64,000 bases of DNA from Candidatus Latescibacterota bacterium (GTDB taxonomy: Bacteria > Latescibacterota > UBA2968 > UBA8231), in NCBI GenBank assembly GCA_965215195.1, contig CBDCDC010000002.1, positions 2,848,001-2,912,000 on the forward strand, in the 5' to 3' direction. Of this stretch, positions 39,308 to 52,396 are shown piece after piece; positions within the stretch are counted from its first letter, which is position 1; every line of letters begins with the position of its first letter. A program made the translations under genes and the position numbers. Below the pieces are notes generated by a model. It made no database searches, had not been told where the DNA came from, and worked only from the letters and a program-made list of their open reading frames with translations.

Positions 39308-39391
39308 TACGGCCCGAACTCGCCGCTGCACTTGGCGGCGTGGAATTCGGAGGCCGCGGCGGTGTTGCGCCGCTACGGTGGCCGAAAGTGA
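39308..39391 (+). pseudogene. Ankyrin-repeat gene 3' remnant
   Basis: YGPNSPLHLAAWNSEAAAVLRRYGGRK*; SPLHLAA matches the ankyrin consensus. Confidence 0.5.
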
Positions 39392-39424
39392 AATACCCTG
39401 TTTGTTGAAAGGATCGGAGATACG

Positions 39425-41692
39425 ATGACCGACGAACAACACCCCCTTCACGCCTTGCCCCAAGGCCATCGGCTGCAAGAATACGAACTGGTGCGCGTGT
39501 TGGGCATGGGCGGCTTCGGCATGACCTATCTGGGCTTTGACCACAACTTGGACAAGGCCGTCGCCCTCAAGGAATACCTGCCGTCGGATATTGCCACCCG
39601 CACGGCCGATGGCAGCGTCGCTCCGCAAGCCAGCACCTTTCGCGGCGATTTCCAATGGGGCTTGGAGCGGTTTTTGGACGAAGCACGCACGTTGGCGCGG
39701 TTTGATCATCGCCACATCATTAAAGTGCATCGTTTCTTTGAGGCGCATGGTACGGCGTATATCGTAATGGAGTATGCCGAAGGCGAGACCTTATCGGCGC
39801 ATCTGGAGCGCAAGGGGCCGCTGACGGAAGCCGAACTCAAGACGATTCTGTATCCGCTTCTGGACGGTTTGGAAGTGGTGCATCAAGCGGCTTTTCTGCA
39901 TCGGGACATCAAGCCGGGCAACATTGTCCTGCGGGCTGAGGACGCTTCGCCGGTGTTGCTGGACTTTGGTGCGGCGCGTCAGGCGATAGGAGCCAAGAGT
40001 CGTTCGGTGACGTCTATCGTGACGCCGGGGTATGCGCCGATAGAGCAGTATTCGAGTCGGGGTCGTCAAGGGGCTTGGTCGGATATTTATGCGTTGGGGG
40101 GCGTGTGCTATCGGGCGTTGACTGGGGACGTGCCGGCGGACGCGACGGATCGGATGCGGCATGATCCGCTGGTTCCGGTGTCTGAGCGGTGTGCGGGTCG
40201 GGCGAGTGGTGCATTTTTGTCAGCGATTGATGCGGCATTGGCAGTAGATGAGGGGGATCGTCCGCAGAGTGTGGGGGCGTGGCGGGCGGCGTTGGAAGGG
40301 GCTAGTTCGGCCTCGGCCCCAGCGCGTGGCCAAGCAGAAGGGGAGAGTCGTAGGATACCGGAGCCAGTGGCTCGGGCGGGGCAAGCTGAGGAAGTGGTGG
40401 ATGCTGTGGCGGCAGCAGAGAAGGATGCGGGGGATGAGGCGACAATTGTGGAGCGGGTGGAGCCGGCCGCGCCGCCGTCGGAGCGGCAGCAGAAGCCCAG
40501 CTTCAAGCGGCTTGCCGTAGTCTTGGGCGTGGTTGCTGCTCTGTTGGTTGGGGGCAAACTGTATGTTGATCATGCCGAACAGGTAGCGTTGGAGAAGGAG
40601 CGTCGGGCGGAACAAGCTGCCGAAGCGGCCAGACTTGCGGCTGAGCAAGCCGAGAAGGAGCGTCGGGCGGAACAAGCTGCCGAAGCGGCCAGACTTGCGG
40701 CTGAGCAAGCCGAGAAGGAGCGTCGGGCGGAACAAGCTGCCGAAGCGGCCAGACTTGCGGCTGAGCAAGCCGAGAAGGAGCGTCGGGCGGAACAAGCTGC
40801 CGAAGCGGCCAGACTTGCGGCTGAGCAAGCCGAGAAGGAGCGTCGGGCGGAACAAGCTGCCGAAGCGGCCAGACTTGCGGCTGAGCAAGCCGAACAGCAG
40901 GCGGCGTTAGAGAAACAGCGTCGGGAGCAGGCGGCGTTGGAAGCAGAGCGCAAGGCGGGCCAGGTGGCTTCGCTTCCGGGGGGTGCGGAGATGGCGTTTG
41001 TTTGGATCGCGCCGGGAGTGTTTCAGATGGGTTCGCCTTCCTCGGAGGCGGGTCGTGGTTCAGATGAAGGGCCGGTGCATGAGGTGGAGATCAGTCGGGG
41101 GTTTTGGTTGGGTAAATATGAGGTGACGCAAGCGCAGTGGGCGGCCGTGATGGGGGCGCGGCCGTGGTCTGGGAAGGATTATGTTCAGTCGAATCCATCT
41201 CATCCGGCGGTGTATATTTCTTGGAATGATGTACATGAATTTATTGGTCGTTTGAATGACGCGGCGGGTGAGGAGTTGTATCGGTTGCCGAGTGAAGCGG
41301 AGTGGGAGTATGCGTGTCGAGCGGGTACGCAGACTCGTTGGTCATTTGGGGATGCCGAGCACCAACTGACGCATTATGCATGGTACAGGGATAATGCTTG
41401 GGGTATGGGTGAGAGGTATGCTCATGCGGTAGGGACGAAGCGTGCGAATGGTTGGGGATTGTATGATATGCACGGGAATGTTTGGGAGTGGGTGCAGGAC
41501 TGGTATGGAAAGAAGTATTATAATAGCTCACCTCGGGTTGACCCCCCGGGGCCTACATCCGGCTCTAATCGCGTCCTCCGGGGCGGCGGCTTCTTCAATA
41601 TCGCCCGGCGCGTGCGGTCGGCGCATCGCAGCAACGCCTCGCCCGACCCCCGCCACTACGGCATTGGCGTGCGCCTTTTAAGGATTCGTTAA
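39425..41692 (+). CDS. Hanks-type Ser/Thr kinase - TM - coiled-coil stalk - FGE-sulfatase (C-lectin fold) domain
   Basis: LG.GGFG, VALKEY, HRDIKPGN, DFG, TPGYAPIEQ; hydrophobic helix; MGS..., RLPSEAEWEYACRAG, YDMHGNVWEW, RV.RGG. Confidence 0.93.
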   Translation: MTDEQHPLHALPQGHRLQEYELVRVLGMGGFGMTYLGFDHNLDKAVALKEYLPSDIATRTADGSVAPQASTFRGDFQWGLERFLDEARTLARFDHRHIIKVHRFFEAHGTAYIVMEYAEGETLSAHLERKGPLTEAELKTILYPLLDGLEVVHQAAFLHRDIKPGNIVLRAEDASPVLLDFGAARQAIGAKSRSVTSIVTPGYAPIEQYSSRGRQGAWSDIYALGGVCYRALTGDVPADATDRMRHDPLVPVSERCAGRASGAFLSAIDAALAVDEGDRPQSVGAWRAALEGASSASAPARGQAEGESRRIPEPVARAGQAEEVVDAVAAAEKDAGDEATIVERVEPAAPPSERQQKPSFKRLAVVLGVVAALLVGGKLYVDHAEQVALEKERRAEQAAEAARLAAEQAEKERRAEQAAEAARLAAEQAEKERRAEQAAEAARLAAEQAEKERRAEQAAEAARLAAEQAEKERRAEQAAEAARLAAEQAEQQAALEKQRREQAALEAERKAGQVASLPGGAEMAFVWIAPGVFQMGSPSSEAGRGSDEGPVHEVEISRGFWLGKYEVTQAQWAAVMGARPWSGKDYVQSNPSHPAVYISWNDVHEFIGRLNDAAGEELYRLPSEAEWEYACRAGTQTRWSFGDAEHQLTHYAWYRDNAWGMGERYAHAVGTKRANGWGLYDMHGNVWEWVQDWYGKKYYNSSPRVDPPGPTSGSNRVLRGGGFFNIARRVRSAHRSNASPDPRHYGIGVRLLRIR
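40592..40893 (+). repeat. Perfect 60-bp coding tandem repeat x5 (EKERRAEQAAEAARLAAEQA)
   Basis: Identical consecutive 60-nt lines in the sequence. Confidence 0.97.
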
Positions 41693-41761
41693 CCCTTTAG
41701 TCCTTTTACCCTTTAACCCTTGGCGGGGGTCTTGGGGCGTGTGGGGTGTCTTTTGGGGTAT

Positions 41762-41879
41762 GCCTTTTGGGATTTCGCCCCGATAAAGGGGTGTGCGTAG
41801 CCGCCCTTCGGGGGCGGAATCCCAAAAGGCGGGGGAGGGGCCCCTGTGAGGCCCGCGTGCGGGCCTCACGCGATTTTTA
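41762..41879 (+). other. Hairpin complex downstream of the kinase-FGE gene (terminator and/or DGR-type cis element)
   Basis: ~22-bp imperfect IR 41762-41783/41808-41830; 11-bp IR GTGAGGCCCGC-GT-GCGGGCCTCAC 41846-41869 followed by GCGATTTTTAT. Confidence 0.65.
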
Positions 41880-42008
41880 TCTTCCCCCCTTCCTGAGAGA
41901 AACTGCCACCCGCACGGCCGACGGCAACGTCGCCCCGCAAGCCAGCACATGGGACGCTCCTAAACGGCTGAGGTATGGCCAACCATCAACTCTGAGGAGG
42001 ATATACTT

Positions 42009-42893
42009 ATGCAGAACAGAACCCTTCGGGATCCTAATTCTCGGTTTATCACACCGGCAGGCGGAGTTATAGCACTTCTCTGTTTCTTTATGCCTTGGGT
42101 TAAAATCTCTTGCATGGGTACCACCACACAAGTTTCAGGTTTTGATCTTGCTACCAAGGGCGGAGACCTGATTATAAACCCTTTTGTTGCTTTAATTGCT
42201 GCCGTGGCAACTATTGGGATTAGCGTTTACATGTTGATGCAACAAACACCTTGGAAATCCAAATTGCCAGTTCTTATTAGCAGTGGGATTGGGATCTGTT
42301 GCCTTTGGGTCAGTTTGTTCAAGGATGGTCGTCCTAGTTTTGGAGGACTTGAAGGCACCCTCCAATTTGGAGCGTTTGGAACGATTATCGGATTTATTCT
42401 TTCTATTATCGGTGTATGGGCCACCTCTAAACCCGACGATAGTTCAGGCATCCCCGGTGAAAACCAGTATAGACCAAACCCAAAGGCTGAGTCCCGCTTG
42501 AACGAAACTGAACAAACGGCTGAAGCAGTGCGCCAAACTAAAGCGAATGCTCCGCAACCCACGCCTTTTAGCTGTCTATTGGAAGGCCAAGACCCCACCG
42601 GCCGGTCATTCGCCTTGACCATATCGGCATTGGCATTGAGTGAGCGGGCCGGGGTGACGCTCGGCAGAAGCCCGGCCAACGCCGAATTTGTCATTGACCA
42701 CCAAGAAGTCTCCCGCGAACACGTCCGGCTTGCCTGTGTTGACGGCGAACTCTACGCAGAGGACTTGAACGCCCTGAATGGCACCAAGGTGAATGGCCGC
42801 TTGCTCAATCCCCACGAGCAGGTGCTGTTGCAAAACAATGATCGGCTTGAGGTAGGGCCGATTGTTTTTGCCGTGCGCTTCGTTCAGGTCTAA
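42009..42893 (+). CDS. Multi-TM protein with C-terminal FHA domain
   Basis: About four hydrophobic segments then LGRSP...VSREH...NGT.VNG; GAGGAGG RBS. Confidence 0.85.
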   Translation: MQNRTLRDPNSRFITPAGGVIALLCFFMPWVKISCMGTTTQVSGFDLATKGGDLIINPFVALIAAVATIGISVYMLMQQTPWKSKLPVLISSGIGICCLWVSLFKDGRPSFGGLEGTLQFGAFGTIIGFILSIIGVWATSKPDDSSGIPGENQYRPNPKAESRLNETEQTAEAVRQTKANAPQPTPFSCLLEGQDPTGRSFALTISALALSERAGVTLGRSPANAEFVIDHQEVSREHVRLACVDGELYAEDLNALNGTKVNGRLLNPHEQVLLQNNDRLEVGPIVFAVRFVQV

Positions 42894-42992
42894 ATACACG
42901 ACAGTAACCTAAGTTGTGGTGCAGCCATGATTTAGATTTATTATCAACCTTCTTAGCTGTTGACGGCCAGCCTGAACGTACACGGAGAGGTT

Positions 42993-44618
42993 ATGAACAA
43001 ACAATACCTATCTTTCATCGCGCATTTCGCCGTGGCTTGGTTCCTTTGCACAAGCCCCGTCTCGGCGCAAATAGATGTGGATGCTGTTTCCGAAAGCATC
43101 GTGCGGGTGCGCGCTTATGACGATCACAAAGTCGTGGTTGAAGGGAGCGGTTTCGTCGTCAATGAAGAGGGCTACGTGCTGACGAATGCCCATCTCACAG
43201 CCAAGGCAGAGGGATTGACTGTATTGTCCCTGAAGACCGGGGCCGAGGTCGTGGCGCAGCGGGTGTTTGCCAGCCGCGCCCTGAACTTGGCCCTGCTGCA
43301 CGTACCGGGCTTGAACTTGCCGCCCCTCAGCTTGTCCGAGCAAGGTGCCGCTGTAGGCCGCGTCGTGCAGACGCTGCGGTTTGGCACGGACGAGGATGTT
43401 CGGCTTTCTCACGGGACGATTGGCACCTACCAAGACGTCCGCGGCAAGAAAGCAAGCCGTCCGGTGGCACACTTGCTCCAACACAACGCCTTGATAACGG
43501 CCAAAGCCTTTGGCATGCCCTTGTTCAACGAATGCGGGGACGTCGTCGCCCTCAATCTGCCCAACCCGGGCAGCGGCTCGTGGCCGTTTCGTAAAGCGAA
43601 GCCAAGCGGGACCATTTTTGCCCTGCGCAGCGGCGACATAATAGCGGCGCTTGAAGAGCGAGAAATCGCGCATACCGTGGTTGAAGCAGAATGCCTGAGT
43701 GCGGTTGAGCGCGCTGAACGCGCTAGAAAAGCGGCGGCTGACAGCCTCAAGTTGGCGAAGGCGCAGGCCGACTCGGTAGGCAAAGCCGCAGAAAAGGCCA
43801 AGGCGCAGGCCGATTCGGCGAGCGAAGCCGCAAAAAAGGCCAAGGCGAAAGAAAAGGCCGCTCGGCGGGCGGCAGAACGGGCGCAAGCGCGAGCCGATTC
43901 CGCCAAGAAAGCGGTGGCCGACAGCCTCCAAGCGGCCAAGGCTCAAGCCGACAGCCTCAAGATGGCGCAGGCGCGGGCTGATTCGGCGAGTAAGGCCGTG
44001 GCCGACAGTCTCAAGGCCGCCAAGGCTCAAGCCGACAGCCTCCAAGCGGTGGAAGAGAAGGCCCAAGCCCAAGCCGACAGCCTCCAAGCGGCCAAAGAAA
44101 AGGCCGCGCAGCGATTGCAGTGGGGCGTTGCTGCGGGGGCGGGATTGGTGCTGCTCGCACTGCTCGGTTGGTGGCTTTCCTCGCGGCGCAAAAAGGAGCA
44201 ATTACAGAGTGCCGAGTCTCGAGTGAGCGAAGCCGAGCAAACGGCTCAAGCCGCGCGCCAAGCGGCGGCGAACGCACCGCAACCCGCGCCTTTCAGATGT
44301 CTATTGGAAGGCCAAGACCCCACCGGCCGCCCATTTGCCTTGACCCTATCGGCCTTGGCATTGAGCGAGCGGGCCGGTGTGACGCTCGGCCGAAGCCCGG
44401 CCAATGCCGAATTTATTATTGACCACGAAGAAGTCTCCCGCGAACACGTCCGACTCGCGTGTGCTGACGGCCAACTCTACGCAGAGGACTTGAACGCCCT
44501 GAATGGCACCAAGGTGAATGGCCGCCTGCTCAACCCCGGCGAGCAGGTGCTGTTGCAAAACAATGATCGGCTTGAGATTGGGCCGGTGATTTTTAGCGTA
44601 CGCTTGCTGCAGGAGTGA
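42993..44618 (+). CDS. Trypsin-like (probably inactive) domain - coiled-coil - TM - FHA
   Basis: Signal peptide; GSGF...LTNAH present but NLALL and AFGMPL replace DLA and GNSGGPL; TM; FHA. Confidence 0.85.
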   Translation: MNKQYLSFIAHFAVAWFLCTSPVSAQIDVDAVSESIVRVRAYDDHKVVVEGSGFVVNEEGYVLTNAHLTAKAEGLTVLSLKTGAEVVAQRVFASRALNLALLHVPGLNLPPLSLSEQGAAVGRVVQTLRFGTDEDVRLSHGTIGTYQDVRGKKASRPVAHLLQHNALITAKAFGMPLFNECGDVVALNLPNPGSGSWPFRKAKPSGTIFALRSGDIIAALEEREIAHTVVEAECLSAVERAERARKAAADSLKLAKAQADSVGKAAEKAKAQADSASEAAKKAKAKEKAARRAAERAQARADSAKKAVADSLQAAKAQADSLKMAQARADSASKAVADSLKAAKAQADSLQAVEEKAQAQADSLQAAKEKAAQRLQWGVAAGAGLVLLALLGWWLSSRRKKEQLQSAESRVSEAEQTAQAARQAAANAPQPAPFRCLLEGQDPTGRPFALTLSALALSERAGVTLGRSPANAEFIIDHEEVSREHVRLACADGQLYAEDLNALNGTKVNGRLLNPGEQVLLQNNDRLEIGPVIFSVRLLQE

Positions 44619-44621
44619 ACA

Positions 44622-45944
44622 TTGCACCGCTCCAGACGCTGGGGTCTCGTCTTGTTTCTTGGTGCGCTGCTGCCGGGCCGCGCCGTTGCTGCGCCAGACT
44701 TTGACGCGCTGGAGAAGAGCGTGGTGCGCATCGTAACCCAGACCAGTGCTGGCACTGGATTCGCGATCAACGACCAAGGCTATATTGCGACCAATGTCCA
44801 CGTCATCGCCAATGCCCGCTCAATCCAAGCCATCCCGACAAACTCCAACGCCCTGTACGAGGTGGAAGTAATCGCCACGTCCCCAGAACTCGACCTCGCA
44901 ATCGCCCATATCCCAGATATAACCCTGCCGCCGATCGCGCTGTCGCTCGCCCCCGCCACCAAAGGACAGAAGGTATGGTCCATCGGCTATCCCGGTGGGG
45001 CTGACCGCAACAGGCCGGCGCACGACCCGACCGTGCAAGACGGCGTCATTGGGCGGGTTTTTTTAGGCGCGTGGCATGCACAAGAGCTCAGAATTATTCA
45101 GCACAATGCGCCGACCAACCCAGGCAACAGCGGCGGCCCCTTACTAGATGACTGTAGCCGGGCCGTCGGCGTCAATACGCAGGCGTCGCTCGTGGTCATT
45201 ACCAGTCCATCGAGCGGGGTGACGCGGGTGCCCCATGCGGCGGGCATTTACTGGTCTTCGCACATAGAGGAGTTGGCCAACCTGTTGGACGGCCACGGCA
45301 TTGCCTTTCAAGCGGAGAGTGACGATTGTGTGGCGGCTGGCGGCACGGGAAGCTCTGGCGAGGCCGAGAAGGCGCGGCGCGAGGCGGAAAAGGCGCGGCG
45401 CGAAGCCGAAGAAGCGCGAGAGCAGGCCGAAGAAGCCAGCGATCAATTCCTCGTCTATCTGCTATTGTTGGGTGGTGTGGCCTTGGTCGCATTGGTCGTT
45501 GCCTTGAAGAAGCCGCGCCAGTTCGCCCAGCAGACTTTGGCGAAGCCGCGCCAGCTCGTCCAACAGATGAGTCAGCGCGTGACCAAAAAAGGGGTAGAGG
45601 CCGTTGCAAAAGGCCCAAAGTACGGCCTCGTGCTAGCTGGTTTTGACGGTCGCGGCCACCGCGTTCGCATTGAGTTGTCGCCGGCCCGCTTGGCCGGTCA
45701 ACGCTTGGGGCTTTCGCTCGGCCGGCATCCCGAGCTGGTGGATGAAGTCGTCGCCGATGAAAACGTATCCCGACGGCATCTGCGCATTGCCGCCCAAGGC
45801 AATCGCTTGTACGTCGAAGACTTGAACTCCAGCAATGGGACGTTTTTGAATGAACAGCGCCTGTCGCCCTTTGAGCCGGCGCGATTGGAATATGGTGCCA
45901 AAGTTGCGTTGGGCGATTTGGTGCTCGTGGCGTCCAAACTTTAG
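44622..45944 (+). CDS. Trypsin-like serine protease - coiled-coil - TM - FHA
   Basis: Signal peptide; TNVH, DLA, GNSGGPL intact triad; TM; LGRHP...VSRRH...DLNSSNGT. Confidence 0.9.
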   Translation: MHRSRRWGLVLFLGALLPGRAVAAPDFDALEKSVVRIVTQTSAGTGFAINDQGYIATNVHVIANARSIQAIPTNSNALYEVEVIATSPELDLAIAHIPDITLPPIALSLAPATKGQKVWSIGYPGGADRNRPAHDPTVQDGVIGRVFLGAWHAQELRIIQHNAPTNPGNSGGPLLDDCSRAVGVNTQASLVVITSPSSGVTRVPHAAGIYWSSHIEELANLLDGHGIAFQAESDDCVAAGGTGSSGEAEKARREAEKARREAEEAREQAEEASDQFLVYLLLLGGVALVALVVALKKPRQFAQQTLAKPRQLVQQMSQRVTKKGVEAVAKGPKYGLVLAGFDGRGHRVRIELSPARLAGQRLGLSLGRHPELVDEVVADENVSRRHLRIAAQGNRLYVEDLNSSNGTFLNEQRLSPFEPARLEYGAKVALGDLVLVASKL

Positions 45945-45956
45945 AGGGTATTGGGC

Positions 45957-46910
45957 ATGAAAAAACGCAGCCGCGAGCTCAGCATCTTTAGCATGTCCGC
46001 GCTCGATCTATTCGCATCGGCTCTCGGTGCCTTCATACTCATTACCGTAGTGCTGCTGCCCTTCTTTCCAAATCTGAACATGTCGGGACAAGCGCAGGCT
46101 GAGTTGGAACAGGCGCAGGCCGAGTTGGCGAAGTCGAAGGCCGAGTTGGCGCAAGCGGAGGCCGAGTTGGAGCGAGAGAAAGCCAAGCTAAGACAGGAAA
46201 AAGCCAAACTAGAGCGGGCCAAGGCCAAAGTTCCGAAAACAGAAAATCCACTTGCAAAACGAGTGGAGGCTTTGCAACAGGAGCTGAAGCAGGCAAAGGC
46301 CGAAGCGGCGAAAGCAAAAGGTCAGCTTGCAAAACGGGTGGAGGCTTTGCAACGGGAGATAGACGACACAACCGTTTTATTGGGAATCAAGACGAAGGCG
46401 AAGAAGTTTGTATTCGTCATAGATATGTCGGGCAGTATTTATCAACCGGCACAGCAAGATTATCGCCCGTTCATAACATTGTCCATACGAGACATGCTCG
46501 CTGCTTTTAAGTCGGAAATAGAGGTCTGTCTCATTGGTTTTCAAGGCTCAAATCGGCTGCACTATTGGCCTCAAAATAGAGGGTACTTTCAAGTGAAAAG
46601 GAATACGCGAGATCGCGTTGTCGGACAGGTAAAAGACTGGATGAGATTGGTGGATGGCGGCACACCCACGCGCACTGCTTTGCTGGCGGCGATTGCACTG
46701 CACCCCGAAGAAATCATCCTGTTGAGCGATGGGGCACCCTCAGAGGATTGGCGCATGGTCGTGCGGACTGTAACGGCTAAAAATAGGCGGAAAATACCCA
46801 TACACGCCGTAGCCGTTGGCAATTACGTGACAGACCGGAAATTTATTGATTTTCTGGTGCAGCTAACCGAACAAAATAACGGCTATGTCGTAGGAGCCAA
46901 ACCGGGTTGA
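45957..46910 (+). CDS. TM-anchored coiled-coil vWA domain protein
   Basis: N-terminal TM SALDLFASALGAFILITVVL; coiled coil; MIDAS DMSGS, GGTPT, LSDGAP; IHAVAVG. Confidence 0.85.
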   Translation: MKKRSRELSIFSMSALDLFASALGAFILITVVLLPFFPNLNMSGQAQAELEQAQAELAKSKAELAQAEAELEREKAKLRQEKAKLERAKAKVPKTENPLAKRVEALQQELKQAKAEAAKAKGQLAKRVEALQREIDDTTVLLGIKTKAKKFVFVIDMSGSIYQPAQQDYRPFITLSIRDMLAAFKSEIEVCLIGFQGSNRLHYWPQNRGYFQVKRNTRDRVVGQVKDWMRLVDGGTPTRTALLAAIALHPEEIILLSDGAPSEDWRMVVRTVTAKNRRKIPIHAVAVGNYVTDRKFIDFLVQLTEQNNGYVVGAKPG

Positions 46911-46911
46911 C

Positions 46912-47295
46912 ATGAACAAATCGACGTTTTCGGTGTATCGAATTGGGCGCAGCCCCGGGGTGGACATTCGGATTGACGATGATTCGGTCTCGCGCGTCCA
47001 CGCCGAGCTAATTGCGACCCAAAGCGGCTCTTACTACCTCACGGATTGCGCCAGCAGCGGGGGTACTTATGTGGCGCGAAATGGTGAGTGGAGACGCATT
47101 CGGCAGGAATTTATAAGCCCGACCGACGCGATTTTACTCGGGCATTACCAGACGACCGCACCCGCACTTATCGCGCTGGCCGCGCAAAAGGAGCGCCGTT
47201 CAGGAGGCGGCAAACCCACGCGGGAGGACAGCTTGCCCGTAGGTCCCGTGCGGCGCAATGTAGATACGGGTGAGATCATGGGCGAGGAGGATTGA
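46912..47295 (+). CDS. Stand-alone FHA domain protein
   Basis: IGRSP..DI.I.DDSVSRVHAEL...D.AS.GGT. Confidence 0.88.
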   Translation: MNKSTFSVYRIGRSPGVDIRIDDDSVSRVHAELIATQSGSYYLTDCASSGGTYVARNGEWRRIRQEFISPTDAILLGHYQTTAPALIALAAQKERRSGGGKPTREDSLPVGPVRRNVDTGEIMGEED

Positions 47296-47296
47296 C

Positions 47297-48082
47297 ATGG
47301 CAAACGGGCAAGGAATAGAGCTGGAGCAACGTCTAAAAGCAAGCGGCGTCAGCCTGTTAGGAGGCGTCGTATCCATAGCGATTATGAGCCTTATTTTTGG
47401 TCATCCCGAGTCGGCGGCCGGTGCTTTCCTGCTAGATCGCCACACCGAGAATTTCCCCTACCCGTTTACGATCCAAAACGTCATGTGGCTCATGTTTTGG
47501 CTTGGCTGCGGTGAACTCTGGGTGCGGTTTAACCAAGCCAAGCTCGAAACGGAGCAGGTGGCGAAACGCTATCTGCCGGAAGACGAGGAGGTTATGTTGC
47601 GGGCGCGGGATTTGGGTTCCTTTTATCAAAAGGTGCGGCCCAAGGCCGAGGAGCACCCCTTTTATTTACAGCGTCTGATCATGCGCTGTATTTTGCAATT
47701 TCAGGGGAGCCACTCGGTCAATCAGGCCAACTCCCTGTTGAATTCTTCCCTCGAACTATTCCAACACGAGCTCGAACTCAAATACGCGATGTTGCGCTAT
47801 CTCGTGTGGCTGATACCAACGTTGGGGTTTATCGGCACGGTGGTGGGCATTGCGTTTGCCTTGGATTACGCGGCCAACATTGAAGACCCACAGGACCCGA
47901 CCTTGCTGGCCGAAATCACCGGTCGGCTGGGCGTGGCGTTTTACACGACCCTGCTGGCGTTGGTTCAGTCGGCCCTGTTGGTGTTTGCGCTGCACATTGC
48001 ACAGAGCCGCGAAGAGATGGCCTTGAACCAATCTGGTCAATACTGTTTGGACAACTTAATCAACCGGCTTTACGAAAAGTAA
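47297..48082 (+). CDS. MotA/TolQ/ExbB proton channel family protein
   Basis: IPTLGFIGTVVGI and LGVAFYTTLLAL signature helices. Confidence 0.88.
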   Translation: MANGQGIELEQRLKASGVSLLGGVVSIAIMSLIFGHPESAAGAFLLDRHTENFPYPFTIQNVMWLMFWLGCGELWVRFNQAKLETEQVAKRYLPEDEEVMLRARDLGSFYQKVRPKAEEHPFYLQRLIMRCILQFQGSHSVNQANSLLNSSLELFQHELELKYAMLRYLVWLIPTLGFIGTVVGIAFALDYAANIEDPQDPTLLAEITGRLGVAFYTTLLALVQSALLVFALHIAQSREEMALNQSGQYCLDNLINRLYEK

Positions 48083-48115
48083 GTTGCTGGAACAACCCAA
48101 AAATAGGAGGGCACC

Positions 48116-48769
48116 ATGCCTGTTTATCGCGGACCCGATGGCAAAATCATTGAAGAGAAAACCGATAAGCGGAAGGAGGATACCAAACCAACGGACAGAG
48201 CTGACAGGCCGTTGCCGCCGGCACCACCGGATGGCGAGCAACCCGCCGGTGCCGGGCGTTTAGATGCGCCCACCCAGCGAATGGGCGAAAGCCGTGCGCC
48301 GGCCAATGTCGGCGCGGAGGAGCGGACGCGCTTGGTGGGAGGGCGGCCGCGGCGAGAAGACGAGGAGCGCCGGCAGGAGCGCGCCGCAGCGGATCGCGGC
48401 ATGGATGATCCGGTTGTGGGGTGGCTGGTGGTTGTGGAGGGGCCGGGCAAGGGGCGGGCCGTGCAATTGGGATATGGTTCCAATTCACTTGGACGCGGGG
48501 CCACCGACCGCATCAAGCTCGATTTTGGCGACGATCAGATTTCGCGCAATGGCCATGCCGTTGTCACGTACGATCCGCGCGGCCGGAGGTTTTACGTGCA
48601 GCACGGCGGCGGCAAGAATCTGACGTATCTCGGGGACCAGCCCGTGCTCACACCGGCTGAGTTGCCGGCGCTGAGTCACATTAGCATCGGCAATACGGTT
48701 CTCCGCTTCGTGCCCCTGTGCGGTGCTGAGTTTGATTGGCAGGATGCAGAAGGAAGCGAGGCGCGATGA
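48116..48769 (+). CDS. FHA domain protein with disordered N-terminal tail
   Basis: PVVGWLVVVEGP, LGRG...DDQISR.GHA, NLTYL; AGGAGG RBS. Confidence 0.85.
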   Translation: MPVYRGPDGKIIEEKTDKRKEDTKPTDRADRPLPPAPPDGEQPAGAGRLDAPTQRMGESRAPANVGAEERTRLVGGRPRREDEERRQERAAADRGMDDPVVGWLVVVEGPGKGRAVQLGYGSNSLGRGATDRIKLDFGDDQISRNGHAVVTYDPRGRRFYVQHGGGKNLTYLGDQPVLTPAELPALSHISIGNTVLRFVPLCGAEFDWQDAEGSEAR

Positions 48770-49803
48770 ACGAATTAGACGGGCGCTTTGCCGCACGGCA
48801 AATTCCCGGCCAACGGGACTATCAAGAGGATGACTACGGCCTGTTAGATGGGCGCGACCTCGGCTTAGGCGGCCGCGAGCACACCATGTTGTTGGTGGCC
48901 GATGGCATGGGCGGCCACGTGGGCGGCGCAACGGCCAGTGGTCTTTTGAGCAAGACCTTTGTCGAGGCGTATCCGCAGGCTTCGGGGCCCATCGTCGATC
49001 GGCTGCGGGCCTGTCTCCAAGAGGCTAATGAAGCCATGGCTGCGGCCATTGCCGAAAATCCCGCACTCGACAGCATGGGTTCGACCTTGGTTGCGGCTGT
49101 TGTTTCAAGCGAAGGGCTGAACTGGATCAGCGTGGGCGACTCCCCGCTGTGGTTGTTTCGCGAGGGTGAATTGAGCCGGTTGAATGCCGATCATTCGATG
49201 GCGCCGGTTCTTGCGGATCTGGTGGCCACCGGGCGCATGACCGCAGCGGAAGCCGCTCAGGATCCAAGTCGGCATTCGCTGCGCTCGGCGGTCATGGGCG
49301 ACGACATCCATTTGATTGACGTATCATCGCAGCCGGTGGCTGTGCAGCAGGGCGACCGGGTACTCTTGGCGAGCGACGGTTTGATGACCCTCAGCGAGCA
49401 AGCGATCGCGGCGATCCTTAGAGAAAGGCAAGACGCGCCCTTGGAGGATAGTGCCGCAGCCCTTATCCAAGCGGTGGAAGCGGCCGAACATCCCCATCAG
49501 GACAATACGACCGTCTTGTTATACGCGCCGGCTGAGGGCGCGGAATTGGCGGCGGCTGATGTTGGCGGGGGGGAAGCTGCTCAGGGTAAGCCGCGATTGA
49601 AGCGCTGGGCTGGACTGTTGGGGATGTTGCTATGCGTTACTGTCTTATTGGGGGTGTTTTATTGGCTTGGGCCGGGCGAAGATGCGGCTGTTGAACCCAG
49701 TGAAGGCCCTGATGTTCAAGTGCCAGTGGCGTCCGACGCCGAAGAGGGCGCACCCGCTTCTCAGGAGGATAGCACCCGTACGGGACTGAACGAGCATGAG
49801 TGA
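48766..49803 (+). CDS. PP2C/PPM Ser/Thr phosphatase with C-terminal TM
   Basis: R..QED, VADGMGGH.GG, MGSTL, VGDS, DHS, LASDGL, DNTT; TM near the C-terminus. Confidence 0.93.
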   Translation: MNELDGRFAARQIPGQRDYQEDDYGLLDGRDLGLGGREHTMLLVADGMGGHVGGATASGLLSKTFVEAYPQASGPIVDRLRACLQEANEAMAAAIAENPALDSMGSTLVAAVVSSEGLNWISVGDSPLWLFREGELSRLNADHSMAPVLADLVATGRMTAAEAAQDPSRHSLRSAVMGDDIHLIDVSSQPVAVQQGDRVLLASDGLMTLSEQAIAAILRERQDAPLEDSAAALIQAVEAAEHPHQDNTTVLLYAPAEGAELAAADVGGGEAAQGKPRLKRWAGLLGMLLCVTVLLGVFYWLGPGEDAAVEPSEGPDVQVPVASDAEEGAPASQEDSTRTGLNEHE

Positions 49804-51454
49804 GGAACAGCATCGCTTGGCGCTGCCGCAGGGGACGCGCATCCGGGACTTTGAATTTCACCGCGTCCTCGGCCACGGCGGGTTTGGCATCACCTATCTG
49901 GGATGGAACATGGCCTTGGATATTCCCGTGGCGATCAAGGAATATCTACCGGCCGACTTGGCTACCCGTGAGCAGGACTTGTCGGTCGTGCCGCAGACGG
50001 CGCAGGCGGCGTCGGACTTTCAGTGGGGCTTGGAGCGGTTTTTGGACGAAGCGCGCACGCTGGCGCGCTTTCAGCACCCCAACATCGTCCGCGTCCATCA
50101 CTTCTTTGAAGCGCATAGCACAGCCTATATCGCAATGGACTATGTGGAGGGGGAGGACTTGTCGGCGCATCTTGAGCGCAAGGGGACACTGAGCGAAGAC
50201 GCGCTAAAGGGTATTCTGGATCCGCTGTTGAGTGCCTTAGAAGTGGTGCATCAAGCGGCTTTTCTGCATCGGGACATCAAGCCGGGCAACATCGTCCTGC
50301 GCGATTCGGATGGCTCGCCGGTGTTGTTGGACTTTGGTGCGGCGCGGCAAGCGATTGGGGCGAAGAGTCGTTCGGTGACGTCGCTCGTGACGCCGGGGTA
50401 TGCGCCGCTTGAGCAGTATTCGAGTCGGGGTCGTCAGGGTGCATGGACGGATATTTATGCGTTAGGTGCGGTGTGCTATCGGGCGTTGACCGGGGACGTG
50501 CCGGCGGATGCGACGGATCGGATGCGGGAGGATCCGCTGATTCCGGTATCGCAGCGGTGTGCGGGTCAAGCCAGTCCAGCGTTTTTGTCGGCGATAGATG
50601 CAGCATTGGCAGTAAATGAGGGAGATCGTCCGCAGAGTGTTGGGGATTGGCGGGCGGCGATGGCGGTGGACGCGGCCCCGCAGCACGAGCGGATCCCTTC
50701 GTTGGCCAAGCGGTATGCGGCTCGGATAAGCCAAACGTTTCTTTCGGTGATTAATAAGACATTGATGCGAGGAAGGCAGGGCGCGAGCAGTGAGACCGCT
50801 GATGCGCCACTTTCTACTCAGTCAGCAGCCAAAGTTAAAGAGGCGAAGCGTTTGAACAGGTGGTTTAAGCTCCACTACATTTGCCTTGCTGCCATCATAC
50901 CGGTATTGACAGCACTATTTGTTGGTATCGCGGTGGTATTTATCTCCCCACAAGGCGAGCGTATCCTCAAAGATCTGATCCGTTTTTTAGAGTCGCAGCG
51001 GTTAGAGTCATACCCGAGTAGCGTATTCGGACTGTTTGGCATCATAATCGCGATTGTTACGGCCGTGTTCGGGTTGATTGCTTTTGTATCCGGGTTGCGT
51101 ATCCTGCATAAATTGTGGTCCCTCATCTCCGCTCACAAAGCAAAGACGACACCAAGCGAAGCCGTTGGATTTTTCTTTATACCGCTGTTCGGTTTCTACT
51201 GGAACTTCATTGCAATTTACGGTCTCGCCAAAGCCCTCAATACCGAAATTGGTCGAAAATCAGTCAGTGAGGCGGCCAGTTTTATCTATTGCTGCTCATT
51301 TTTGCTTGGCCCTCTATGGGTGATAATGGGATGGCGAGAGGATCAGATTTGGATGGTCCCTATTGGATATATTGTTATGGTTGTGCTCTGGTTCGTCGTT
51401 CTGAGGCAAATGCAGAGTGCTGGTATGTTCATTTTGCAAGCGGATAAGGTGTAG
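49796..51454 (+). CDS. Ser/Thr kinase with multi-TM C-terminal domain
   Basis: LGHGGFG, VAIKEY, HRDIKPGN, DFG, TPGYAPLEQ; several hydrophobic helices in an AT-richer tail. Confidence 0.92.
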   Translation: MSEEQHRLALPQGTRIRDFEFHRVLGHGGFGITYLGWNMALDIPVAIKEYLPADLATREQDLSVVPQTAQAASDFQWGLERFLDEARTLARFQHPNIVRVHHFFEAHSTAYIAMDYVEGEDLSAHLERKGTLSEDALKGILDPLLSALEVVHQAAFLHRDIKPGNIVLRDSDGSPVLLDFGAARQAIGAKSRSVTSLVTPGYAPLEQYSSRGRQGAWTDIYALGAVCYRALTGDVPADATDRMREDPLIPVSQRCAGQASPAFLSAIDAALAVNEGDRPQSVGDWRAAMAVDAAPQHERIPSLAKRYAARISQTFLSVINKTLMRGRQGASSETADAPLSTQSAAKVKEAKRLNRWFKLHYICLAAIIPVLTALFVGIAVVFISPQGERILKDLIRFLESQRLESYPSSVFGLFGIIIAIVTAVFGLIAFVSGLRILHKLWSLISAHKAKTTPSEAVGFFFIPLFGFYWNFIAIYGLAKALNTEIGRKSVSEAASFIYCCSFLLGPLWVIMGWREDQIWMVPIGYIVMVVLWFVVLRQMQSAGMFILQADKV

Positions 51455-51583
51455 TTACTAACGTTCTCACTTTTTCTAAGAGGCCGTCTGCAAACCCCTT
51501 GTGCGGTCCTCTGCGGCCCATAGTTGCGCCGCTACGGTGGCCGAAAGTGAAATACACTGTTTGTTGAAAGGATCGGAGATACG

Positions 51584-52396
51584 ATGAGCGAAGAGCAACA
51601 CCCCCTTCACGCCTTGCCCCAAGGCCATCGGCTGCAAGAATACGAACTGGTGCGCGTGTTGGGCTTTGGCGGCTTCGGCATGACGTATTTGGGTTTCGAT
51701 CACAACTTGGACAAGGCCGTCGCTATCAAAGAATACCTACCGTCCGACATCGCTACCCGCACGGCCGATGGCAGCGTCGCCCCGCAAGCCAGCACCTTTC
51801 GCGGCGATTTCCAATGGGGCTTAGAGCGGTTTTTGGACGAAGCGCGCACGTTGGCGCGGTTTGATCATCGCCACATCATTAAAGTGCATCGTTTCTTTGA
51901 AGCGCATGGTACGGCGTATATCGTGATGGAGTATGCCGAAGGCGAGACCTTATCGGCGCATCTGGAGCGCAAGGGGCCGCTGACGGAAGCCGAACTCAAG
52001 ACGATTCTGTATCCGATTTTGGACGGTTTGGAAGTGGTGCATCAAGCGGCTTTTCTGCATCGGGACATCAAGCCGGGCAACATCGTCCTGCGCGATGAGG
52101 ACGCTTCGCCGGTGTTGTTGGACTTTGGTGCGGCGCGGCAGGCGATTGGGGCGAAGAGTCGTTCAGTGACGTCGATCGTGACGCCGGGATATGCGCCGAT
52201 AGAGCAGTATTCGAGTCGGGGTCGTCAGGGTGCATGGACGGACATTTACGCGTTGGGAGGCGTGTGCTATCGGGCGTTGACCGGACAGGTGCCGGAGGAT
52301 GCGCAGCAGGCTACGGGGGCTGACGCGCCCATCGTGGCGCGTGTGGAGCCGGCCGGCCGTTTTCACGGGCGCAGGCTTTTAGGCGCGACCTACTGA
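51584..52396 (+). pseudogene. Truncated Ser/Thr kinase, near-copy of the 39425 kinase domain
   Basis: Near-identical to 39425.. up to VPEDA, then jumps to a linker-like segment and stops; lacks the last kinase subdomains, TM and sensor. Confidence 0.75.

Follow-up and report, generated by a model that had tools for sequence, protein, structure and literature searches.

Can a protein with no recognisable kinship to MotB or ExbD serve as the inner subunit of an ion-driven membrane motor? Among motors of the 5:2 type, five kinds have a known function, namely rotation of flagella, uptake by Ton, maintenance of the envelope by Tol, gliding together with type 9 secretion, and defence by Zorya. The question is raised by 64,000 nucleotides from a Candidatus Latescibacterota bacterium (GCA_965215195.1, contig CBDCDC010000002.1, positions 2,848,001 to 2,912,000), a stretch that we call the window and whose own positions are used below. 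Within it lie a gene for a protein with a vWA domain (von Willebrand factor A) and a gene for a channel protein of the MotA/ExbB/TolQ family. An earlier note on this DNA proposed that they form a possible new stator-like pair, in which the vWA protein stands in place of MotB or ExbD. We will call this part, the one played by MotB or ExbD, the axle. The two genes, with the lengths of their products in amino acids (aa), are:

45957..46910, + strand, vWA protein and axle candidate, 317 aa (Pfam VWA, E 3.9e-5, 24.4 bits; cut-off 23.8 bits)
47297..48082, + strand, MotA/ExbB/TolQ-family channel subunit, 261 aa (Pfam MotA_ExbB, PF01618, E 3.1e-10, 40.3 bits; cut-off 22.9 bits)

Each gene has two candidate starts, 45951 and 45957 for the vWA gene and 47270 and 47297 for the MotA-like gene. 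We take 45957 to be the true start of the first, because its homologues begin MKKRSRE, and 47297 to be that of the second, because its homologues are 261 aa long. We believe the operon to which they belong probably encodes two subunits of an ion-driven membrane motor of the 5:2 type, akin to the flagellar stator, Tol and Ton and presumably powered by protons, within a multi-gene system that would be controlled by phosphorylation. The argument draws on the conservation of one Asp, the fold of the channel, the way the two genes travel together, and what happens to the rest of the vWA protein when they do.

The Asp helix, stalk and head of the vWA protein

The ion-binding residue of MotB, ExbD and TolR is an Asp in the transmembrane (TM) helix. 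The vWA protein begins MKKRSRELSIFSMSALDLFASALGAF, and its helix stretch, FSMSALDLFASALGAF, contains Asp17 (codon 46005-46007). In an AlphaFold2 (AF2) model residues 14-36, which follow a basic tail, form a single TM helix with Asp17 at its N-terminal end, the one towards the cytoplasm. Helices 44-91 and 98-137 then form a coiled-coil stalk, and residues 139-317 (46371-46907) have a vWA fold, with pLDDT mostly above 90. For this head Foldseek ranks the vWA domain of ITIH1 first (E 2.4e-8), ahead of integrin I domains, CLCA1 and BatA/BatB. Its metal-ion-dependent adhesion site (MIDAS) is intact: among 41 homologues with 27-91% identity, D156, S158, T238 and D258 are invariant and S160 is conserved in at least 90%. 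The earlier note had read the protein in just this way, as a basic tail and one TM segment with Asp17 continuing into a coiled coil and a MIDAS-intact vWA domain, and both the sequence and the model bear it out. Its further statement, that this is not an OmpA/peptidoglycan-binding or ExbD fold, agrees with the absence of any match on the vWA protein to Pfam ExbD (PF02472, E up to 0.01), MotB_plug (PF13677) or OmpA.

Conservation of the Asp across homologues was a check that the earlier note had proposed. A search with the vWA protein against 1.84 billion cluster representatives gave 1085 matches at E <=0.001, and the statements here refer to the best 150 of these. A helix pattern finds Asp17 in 138 of the 150, every pattern match having the Asp. 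The remaining 12 divide into three in which it is seen by eye, one in which it lies in a divergent helix, and eight that are truncated at the N-terminus. Every homologue that keeps its N-terminus thus has the Asp (141-142 of 142). The same is true of what we will call the module, the 48-aa N-terminal part of the vWA protein that holds the Asp helix. We collected related loci in species-representative genomes, keeping the best 80 of 450, and all 68 module-bearing open reading frames (ORFs) in them have the Asp. S14, D17, S21 and G24 make up an invariant face of the module helix, and in most members a P-Y/F-F-P-N motif comes after it (PFFPN in the window copy).

The stalk is much less constant. 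Its length varies among close relatives, which have proteins of 266-354 aa at 74-92% identity, and the window copy of the gene has an internal 75-nt repeat at 46213-46358. It looks like an adjustable spacer.

The channel subunit

The AF2 model of the 261-aa MotA-like protein has four long helices (pLDDT 84.2). Its top Foldseek matches are all chains of TolQ, ExbB, PomA or MotA with probability 1.00, at TM-scores of 0.4-0.67 (0.5-0.67 for TolQ) and modest E-values of 2.5e-3 and weaker. The Pro and Thr residues of PomA TM3 and TM4 line the pore and have a functional role. In 27 sequences of 58-96% identity, P174, T175, G177, G180 and T181 of TM3 and T217 and T218 of TM4 are invariant in the protein studied here, and its Pro and Thr residues in these helices align to the PomA motifs. 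A complex prediction with four copies of channel residues 63-252 and two of the 48-aa module scored 0.02 against a mark of 0.32, these being 4:2 fragments that are far from a native 5:2 full-length assembly, and the score speaks neither for nor against binding. One database protein, P0138 (384 aa, one member), has an FHA domain fused to a MotA-like protein; as it is a single record, we count this fusion as weak evidence.

Module and channel travel together

If the vWA protein is the axle of this channel, the two should be found in the same genomes and in the same numbers. We searched for the 48-residue module and for a profile of the MotA-like protein in the same 151 genomes sampled from the phylum of the window. 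The module is present in 28 and the channel in 29, and all 28 lie within the 29. In the odd genome, G148, the channel gene is 604 bases from the start of a contig and there is no module match. The class to which locus L039 belongs served as a second sample of about 250 genomes, where the module was found in 5 of 251 and the channel in the same 5 of 250. These figures are counts rather than statistics, the sampled genomes being related and so not independent. Copy numbers of module and channel agree as well (3/3, 2/2, 2/2 and 2/2), and the two excesses are tandem module pairs. Co-occurrence, the other check proposed earlier, comes out in favour of the pair.

The related loci tell the same story. 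A module gene lies in the fetched flanks of 66 of the 80, and 11 of the other 14 loci end at contig ends. The last three have full flanks of 10 kb without a module, and in each of their genomes there is exactly one strong module match elsewhere.

The home genome (95.2% complete, 8.5% contamination) allows the question to be turned around, since one can ask what else the channel could be paired with. PF01618 matches nine places in it. Canonical ExbB/TolQ genes make up four of them; one or two ExbD genes adjoin each of these, which covers all seven ExbD of the genome. Three are of the MotA-like type described here, and each has a paralogue of the vWA protein (100, 92 and 86% identity) at a distance of about 1 kb. 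The other two places are taken up below. MotB_plug has no match in the whole home genome, the window holds no ExbD or MotB besides the vWA protein, and no orphan ExbD or MotB exists in the genome. The earlier note had said that no other MotB or ExbD is nearby, and it had named pairing of the MotA-like protein with a canonical ExbD encoded elsewhere as one finding that would overturn its proposal. The first statement stands, and the second outcome did not appear, all seven ExbD being accounted for by canonical partners.

A MotB/ExbD-like axle role for the vWA protein, putative as any role read from sequence must be, is well supported because the co-occurrence is near perfect, because every ExbD is already beside a canonical partner and because there is no MotB plug. 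Together with the invariant Asp and the matching copy number, this upholds the claim that the vWA protein takes the place of MotB or ExbD.

One of the canonical clusters has a peculiarity of its own. In the ExbD at C2:1900046-1900396, the first ExbD of an ExbB-ExbD-ExbD cluster, an Asn occupies the position of the TM Asp of the others (LINCMF versus LIDCVF).

Exchangeable heads and a patchy distribution

The earlier note took the vWA head to define the pair. This did not hold, since the same N-terminal module bears three types of head and the constant partner of the channel is the Asp-helix module. The vWA head of the window type is found in 28 of the 66 module-bearing loci. Another 17 have a vWA head of a second type, whose metal site is DxTGS (Pfam VWA_2), and 21 have a beta domain some 110 residues long that matches no Pfam family and lacks a MIDAS. 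UniRef names two SAR86 members with the beta head 'DUF2135 domain-containing', and we tried that assignment; three of the proteins gave no Pfam match at E up to 0.1, so the head is left here as a Pfam-less beta domain.

We used a quick maximum-likelihood tree of the channel protein to count how often the heads were swapped and to follow the history of the channel. It shows at least 7 changes of head type, against a possible minimum of 2. We believe the helix module and the channel are the evolutionary unit and the heads are exchangeable, because the same module carries three heads that were swapped repeatedly on the tree. The phyla on the tree are interleaved; Latescibacterota rows, for example, are nested among Gammaproteobacteria rows. 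Tandem module pairs exist in 2 of the 66 loci, and the pair in L029 is 67% identical.

Carriers of the system include SAR86, Latescibacterota and Vicinamibacteria, and one carrier at least, Nioella ostreopsis (locus L065), is in culture. Within one genus, that of the home genome, 12 of 22 sampled genomes carry it. This patchy, multi-copy distribution suggests an accessory role. Near-identical MotA-like sequences occur in loci L024, L025 and L040 and again in L003, L006 and L010, which are labelled as Latescibacterota, Gemmatimonadota and Acidimicrobiaceae metagenome-assembled genomes (MAGs). They reflect either a recent transfer or MAG contigs that were binned or labelled wrongly.

The operon around the pair

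The two genes belong to a set of eleven genes, all on the + strand, that runs from 39425 to 52396. The other nine are:

39425..41692, + strand, Ser/Thr kinase that ends in an FGE-sulfatase-like domain, 755 aa (Pfam Pkinase E 2.2e-37, FGE-sulfatase E 4.4e-49)
42009..42893, + strand, membrane protein with a C-terminal FHA domain, 294 aa (Pfam FHA E 6.3e-15, residues 216-283)
42960..44618, + strand, trypsin-like pseudoprotease, 552 aa (Pfam Trypsin_2 E 1.1e-16, FHA E 4.1e-15)
44622..45944, + strand, trypsin-like protease with intact catalytic motifs, 440 aa (Pfam Trypsin_2 E 1.4e-26, FHA E 2.1e-16)
46912..47295, + strand, small cytoplasmic FHA protein, 127 aa (Pfam FHA E 1.3e-14)
48116..48769, + strand, FHA protein with a disordered N-terminal half, 217 aa (Pfam FHA E 1.7e-6)
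48736..49803, + strand, PP2C phosphatase with a C-terminal TM segment, read from its hydrophobic C-terminal stretch, 355 aa (Pfam PP2C_2 E 1.3e-11)
49796..51454, + strand, Ser/Thr kinase with a C-terminal multi-TM domain, 552 aa (Pfam Pkinase E 4.4e-37, weak DUF4231)
51584..52396, + strand, second, truncated copy of the gene for the first kinase, 270 aa (Pfam Pkinase E 4.6e-39)

The earlier note omitted the 127-aa FHA gene that lies between the pair, and with it the entire kinase/PP2C/FHA context, although nothing else in the neighbourhood is so well conserved. An FHA protein like the 217-aa one follows directly after the MotA-like gene in 76 of the 80 related loci, PP2C is found in 74 and a kinase in 73, and a small FHA protein like the 127-aa one lies directly upstream of the MotA-like gene in 63. 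Both of the FHA proteins encoded beside the channel gene are soluble. The FGE-like domain is less regular, with kinase and FGE-like ORFs in 25 of the 80. The home genome has three complete paralogous operons of this kind, each in the order protease, protease, vWA, FHA, MotA-like, FHA, PP2C, kinase. With these three occurrences and 450 related loci among species-representative genomes, the arrangement goes beyond chance. Searches of the vWA, MotA-like and FHA proteins against NCBIfam and PADLOC gave nothing specific, only generic or sub-threshold matches such as that of the 217-aa protein to a FhaB/FipA-like NCBIfam model (E 2e-12, under the model's cut-off).

Proteases recur as well. When searched iteratively, 59 of the 80 loci show genes for trypsin-FHA fusions, every trypsin-bearing ORF found also has an FHA domain, and further diverged copies occupy unlabelled gaps in the related loci. 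Both window proteins begin with a signal peptide and a Trypsin_2 domain and end with a TM segment and a cytoplasmic FHA domain, the 552-aa protein having a coiled coil between Trypsin_2 and TM as well. The first lacks the GxSGGP serine motif and has Asn at the place of its partner's Asp motif. The second has all of its motifs (TNVHV, DLAIAHI and GNSGGP). In the 22 loci where a first, non-iterative search showed two tandem trypsin-FHA genes the first is without the Ser motif in 22 of 22, and the second has it in 22 of 22. Judged by these motifs, the tandem genes are a conserved pair of one presumably dead and one live protease.

The first kinase has a cytoplasmic N-terminal kinase domain, then a TM segment, a tandem-repeat coiled coil and the C-terminal FGE-like domain. 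Between the TM segment and the FGE-like domain, at 40592-40900, its gene holds four to five near-perfect 60-nt tandem copies (98-100% identity) that encode a repeated AEQAEKERRAEQAAEAARLA stretch, which may be a periplasmic spacer of variable length. The 5' end of this gene with about 60 bases upstream (39364-39946) recurs at 51523-52105 with 93-97% identity. The resulting 12.2-kb direct repeat brackets the whole operon, its right arm being the truncated 270-aa kinase, and it hints at duplication or recombination among the three paralogous operons. The 294-aa protein, whose N-terminal half reads as hydrophobic, is peculiar to this operon in that phmmer found no match to it in the other related loci or in the two paralogous operons. 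The FHA end of its gene (42486-42785) has 87% DNA identity to the FHA end of the first trypsin-like gene (44211-44510), and it may be a recent mosaic. The flanks of the operon are metabolic, with a CoA-transferase, an oxidoreductase, an enoyl-CoA hydratase and PhyH upstream and an NMN transporter and a prephenate dehydratase downstream.

Relation to known motors and signalling sets

It is important to realize that the pair is not new in kind. Williams-Jones et al. (Mol Biol Evol 2025, PMC12204202), in a computational study, describe TM-tethered proteins with a trans-pore helix (TPH) and a vWA domain, 'TPH-vWA' proteins, that co-occur tightly with tolQ-like genes and lack tolR or exbD. According to the portions of that paper on which we draw, the trans-pore helix has a conserved Asp, an AF3 model puts this Asp inside a ring of Thr, and the proteins are proposed as the dimeric inner partner of a TolQ-like pentamer. 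The claim of novelty in the earlier note therefore falls, since this published proposal is equivalent. What survives of that note is the pair itself and the axle position of the vWA protein, while novelty and the head as defining feature do not.

The family is likely the same as ours, compared by description rather than by sequence. Both have the Asp helix, the vWA head and linkage to a tolQ-like gene without tolR, exbD or motB. They differ in that TPH-vWA genes, as that paper's account has it, are 'predominantly' in heterologous pairs and mainly in Proteobacteria and Verrucomicrobia, whereas each of the three home-genome operons has one axle gene, and pairs are found in only 2 of our 66 loci. 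The TPH-vWA passages of PMC12204202 also name no kinases, PP2C, proteases or non-vWA heads, and 'fha' appears in them only as FhaC. An Atlas look-up returned look-alike vWA clusters in Pseudomonadota, Bdellovibrionota and Verrucomicrobiota, which fits the published range and proves nothing. The locus is thus a variant of the predicted TPH-vWA/TolQ-like kind, with a single axle gene, as one of three copies, inside an operon for phospho-signalling and proteases. It is this conserved operon around the motor that appears undescribed. A literature search whose coverage stopped short of subscription journals found no paper that ties such a motor to a kinase/FHA/PP2C module or its proteases, and neither a stator phylogeny paper (PMC12505986) nor a Ton/Tol review (PMC12905483) mentions vWA or FHA.

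The better known motors each share something with the pair. With ExbB-ExbD and TolQ-TolR it shares a channel fold that is closest to TolQ and ExbB and an axle whose tail is basic and whose TM helix has its Asp close to the cytoplasmic end. Unlike them, the channel has an extra N-terminal helix (four long ones), the axle shows neither PF02472 nor detectable homology in the helix, and there is no TonB or TolA partner here. MotA-MotB and PomA-PomB have in common with it the four-helix channel, the TM3 Pro/Thr and TM4 Thr-Thr residues that align to PomA, and a single-TM axle with Asp. They differ from it in the MotB plug and the OmpA-like peptidoglycan-binding domain, which it lacks, and in the cytoplasmic domain. 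Zorya ZorA-ZorB is likewise a non-flagellar MotAB-like pair in an accessory operon, and the proteins match ZorA2 (E 1.6e-5) and ZorB1 (E 8e-4) weakly; but the channel of 261 aa is without the long ZorA tail, ZorC, ZorD and ZorE gave no match, and the head is a vWA domain rather than a peptidoglycan-binding one.

The signalling half of the operon has its own relatives. Sets of vWA, kinase, FHA and PP2C genes have been called the 'TerY-P triad'. In the descriptions at hand, the Deinococcus operon DRA0331-0334 combines vWA, kinase, FHA and PP2C without a MotA-like gene, and PMC7159879 describes a kinase-PP2C-vWA neighbourhood. Operons of the DRA0331-0334 type share all four domain types with ours; as so described they are without the MotA-like channel and the Asp helix, and here the vWA head is replaceable. 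A link between FHA domains and a motor has also been predicted before, for GltG-AglR of Myxococcus, where the relevant part of PMC11761067 has the pentamer of a TolQ-like motor bind an FHA domain at its cytoplasmic face. The small FHA protein of the window matches the GltG model weakly (E 1.6e-7, far below the cut-off). In the AglRQS-GltG system, to judge from that account, the FHA domain is within a TonB-like protein and the axle is AglQ/AglS, whereas here the FHA proteins are separate and the axle bears the head.

How the system might work

We propose the following arrangement. The 261-aa protein would form a pentameric channel ring like that of MotA or TolQ, and a dimer of the 317-aa protein would sit in its pore by the N-terminal helix, with Asp17 as the ion-binding residue. 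The coiled-coil stalk would project the metal-dependent vWA head into the periplasm, where the head might serve as an anchor or as a load. This topology is read from the sequences, which put the basic tail and all FHA domains in the cytoplasm and the head, both protease domains and the FGE-like domain in the periplasm.

The motor would be part of a multi-gene system driven by threonine phosphorylation. A signal in the periplasm, perhaps sensed by the FGE-like domain of one membrane kinase, would switch the kinase on. The phosphothreonine marks would then bring the FHA-bearing parts to the motor, and the motor would pull or turn a ligand bound to the head beside the tethered protease. Finally PP2C would return the system to its start state. 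Thus phosphorylation by the membrane kinases, read by FHA domains, may control the assembly or activity of the motor together with its proteases.

Weighing the alternatives

Several observations weigh against a motor, or at least against a simple one. The physical complex, its stoichiometry and its ion flow are argued here from genes. The helix does not resemble its supposed counterparts: besides the missing Pfam matches given above, hhalign gave the module a probability of 1.5% against the N-termini of the seven ExbD of the home genome, which is a weak test for a helix of about 25 residues, and the PADLOC matches of the vWA protein to ZorB (ZorB1 and weaker ones) fall in part on the coiled coil. 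Nor do module and channel genes always adjoin: many loci have 2-7 kb between them, one genome has about 17 kb and another about 120 kb. The two remaining PF01618 matches of the home genome, C2:878664-878888 and C1:383842-384057 (the second below the cut-off), lie in frames of 355 and 519 aa and are also without an adjacent ExbD; they could be other unconventional motors. The patchiness within a single genus bears on the role and says nothing about the mechanism. Lastly, operons with vWA, kinase, FHA and PP2C exist without MotA in the accounts cited above, so the vWA head could belong functionally to the phospho-module.

This last point can be made into an argument of its own. The vWA protein might be the membrane-anchored vWA member of a vWA/kinase/PP2C/FHA signalling set, the MotA-like protein a separate channel or scaffold, and Asp17 a residue for helix packing or signalling rather than for passing ions through a pore. 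The MotA-free operons (DRA0331-0334; PMC7159879, as far as the descriptions go) would be its precedent, and the helix without detectable homology to ExbD or MotB would be expected. We consider it rather improbable all the same. A non-vWA domain replaces the vWA head in 21 of 66 loci while the helix and its Asp persist, so the constant link is that of helix to channel and not that of vWA to kinase. Module and channel co-occur in 28 of 29 and 5 of 5 genomes with equal copy numbers, and a charged TM residue in 68 of 68 members is hard to ascribe to packing alone. One could also argue that the vWA protein is a force transducer like TonB or TolA that sits outside the pentamer, with the pore empty or filled by an unrecognised small protein. 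An N-terminal TM anchor is common among vWA proteins, and the first of the vWA families in PMC12204202, in the part we cite, is TonB-like in exactly this way. The module helix has neither a His nor the SHLS-type motif which that text associates with such proteins, and has the Asp instead. The operon also holds no twin tolR-like genes, none is orphaned in the genome, and beyond the proteins already labelled no conserved small TM protein is found in the 80 loci. We would give this explanation very little credence.

Two further proposals concern the role and are compatible with a motor formed by the module and the channel. In one the system is a Zorya-like conflict or defence system, in which the MotAB-like unit would sense envelope damage by a phage or competitor and the kinases and proteases would respond. 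It is favoured by the patchy occurrence in the genus (12 of 22), by the three diverged copies of the home genome, by a channel tree that mixes phyla and by at least 7 head swaps on that tree, and PADLOC adds the weak ZorA2 and ZorB matches and kinases that match defence-kinase models. Those kinase matches, however, are to generic kinase domains. No ZorC/D/E-like, nuclease or other known effector model was matched by the 10 operon proteins run through PADLOC, and the flanking genes are metabolic, not defence or mobile. We think this role unlikely. The other proposal is that of the earlier note, in which the vWA head, driven by the motor, would hold substrates in the periplasm by means of its metal site and would either unfold them for the adjacent trypsin-like protease or present them to it. 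In its favour, the predicted location of the head and of both protease domains is the periplasm, their genes are adjacent, trypsin-FHA genes are found in 59 of 80 loci and the MIDAS is invariant within this head type. Against this, 21 of the 80 loci have no protease in the fetched DNA, some of them ending at contig ends, and beta heads without a MIDAS work in the same operons. The idea draws on gene neighbourhood and shared periplasmic topology, and we doubt that it will hold in this form.

What the finding means

If the vWA protein is indeed the axle of an ion-driven motor, the pair would be a further branch of the 5:2 motors, one in which ligand-binding heads can be swapped on an axle that is not recognisably related to MotB or ExbD. 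The pair would also appear to be the first such motor that is hard-wired to a eukaryote-like switch of Ser/Thr kinase, PP2C and FHA domains. We would put forward tentatively the broader view that there is a widespread class of trans-envelope machines, phosphothreonine-gated proton motors with interchangeable periplasmic heads and tethered dead and live proteases. Such motors might turn a kinase signal into mechanical work and regulated periplasmic proteolysis, or envelope strain into a phospho-signal. A role in envelope surveillance or in conflict between microbes would fit, because the distribution is patchy, multi-copy and horizontally mixed.

The host lineages are abundant, uncultured bacteria of sea and soil, and the system can be put to the test since it is carried by the cultured Nioella ostreopsis. 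If the phospho-switch does gate the motor, it would give a direct handle on how such motors are activated and on what they pull, and this would bear on Tol and Ton too.

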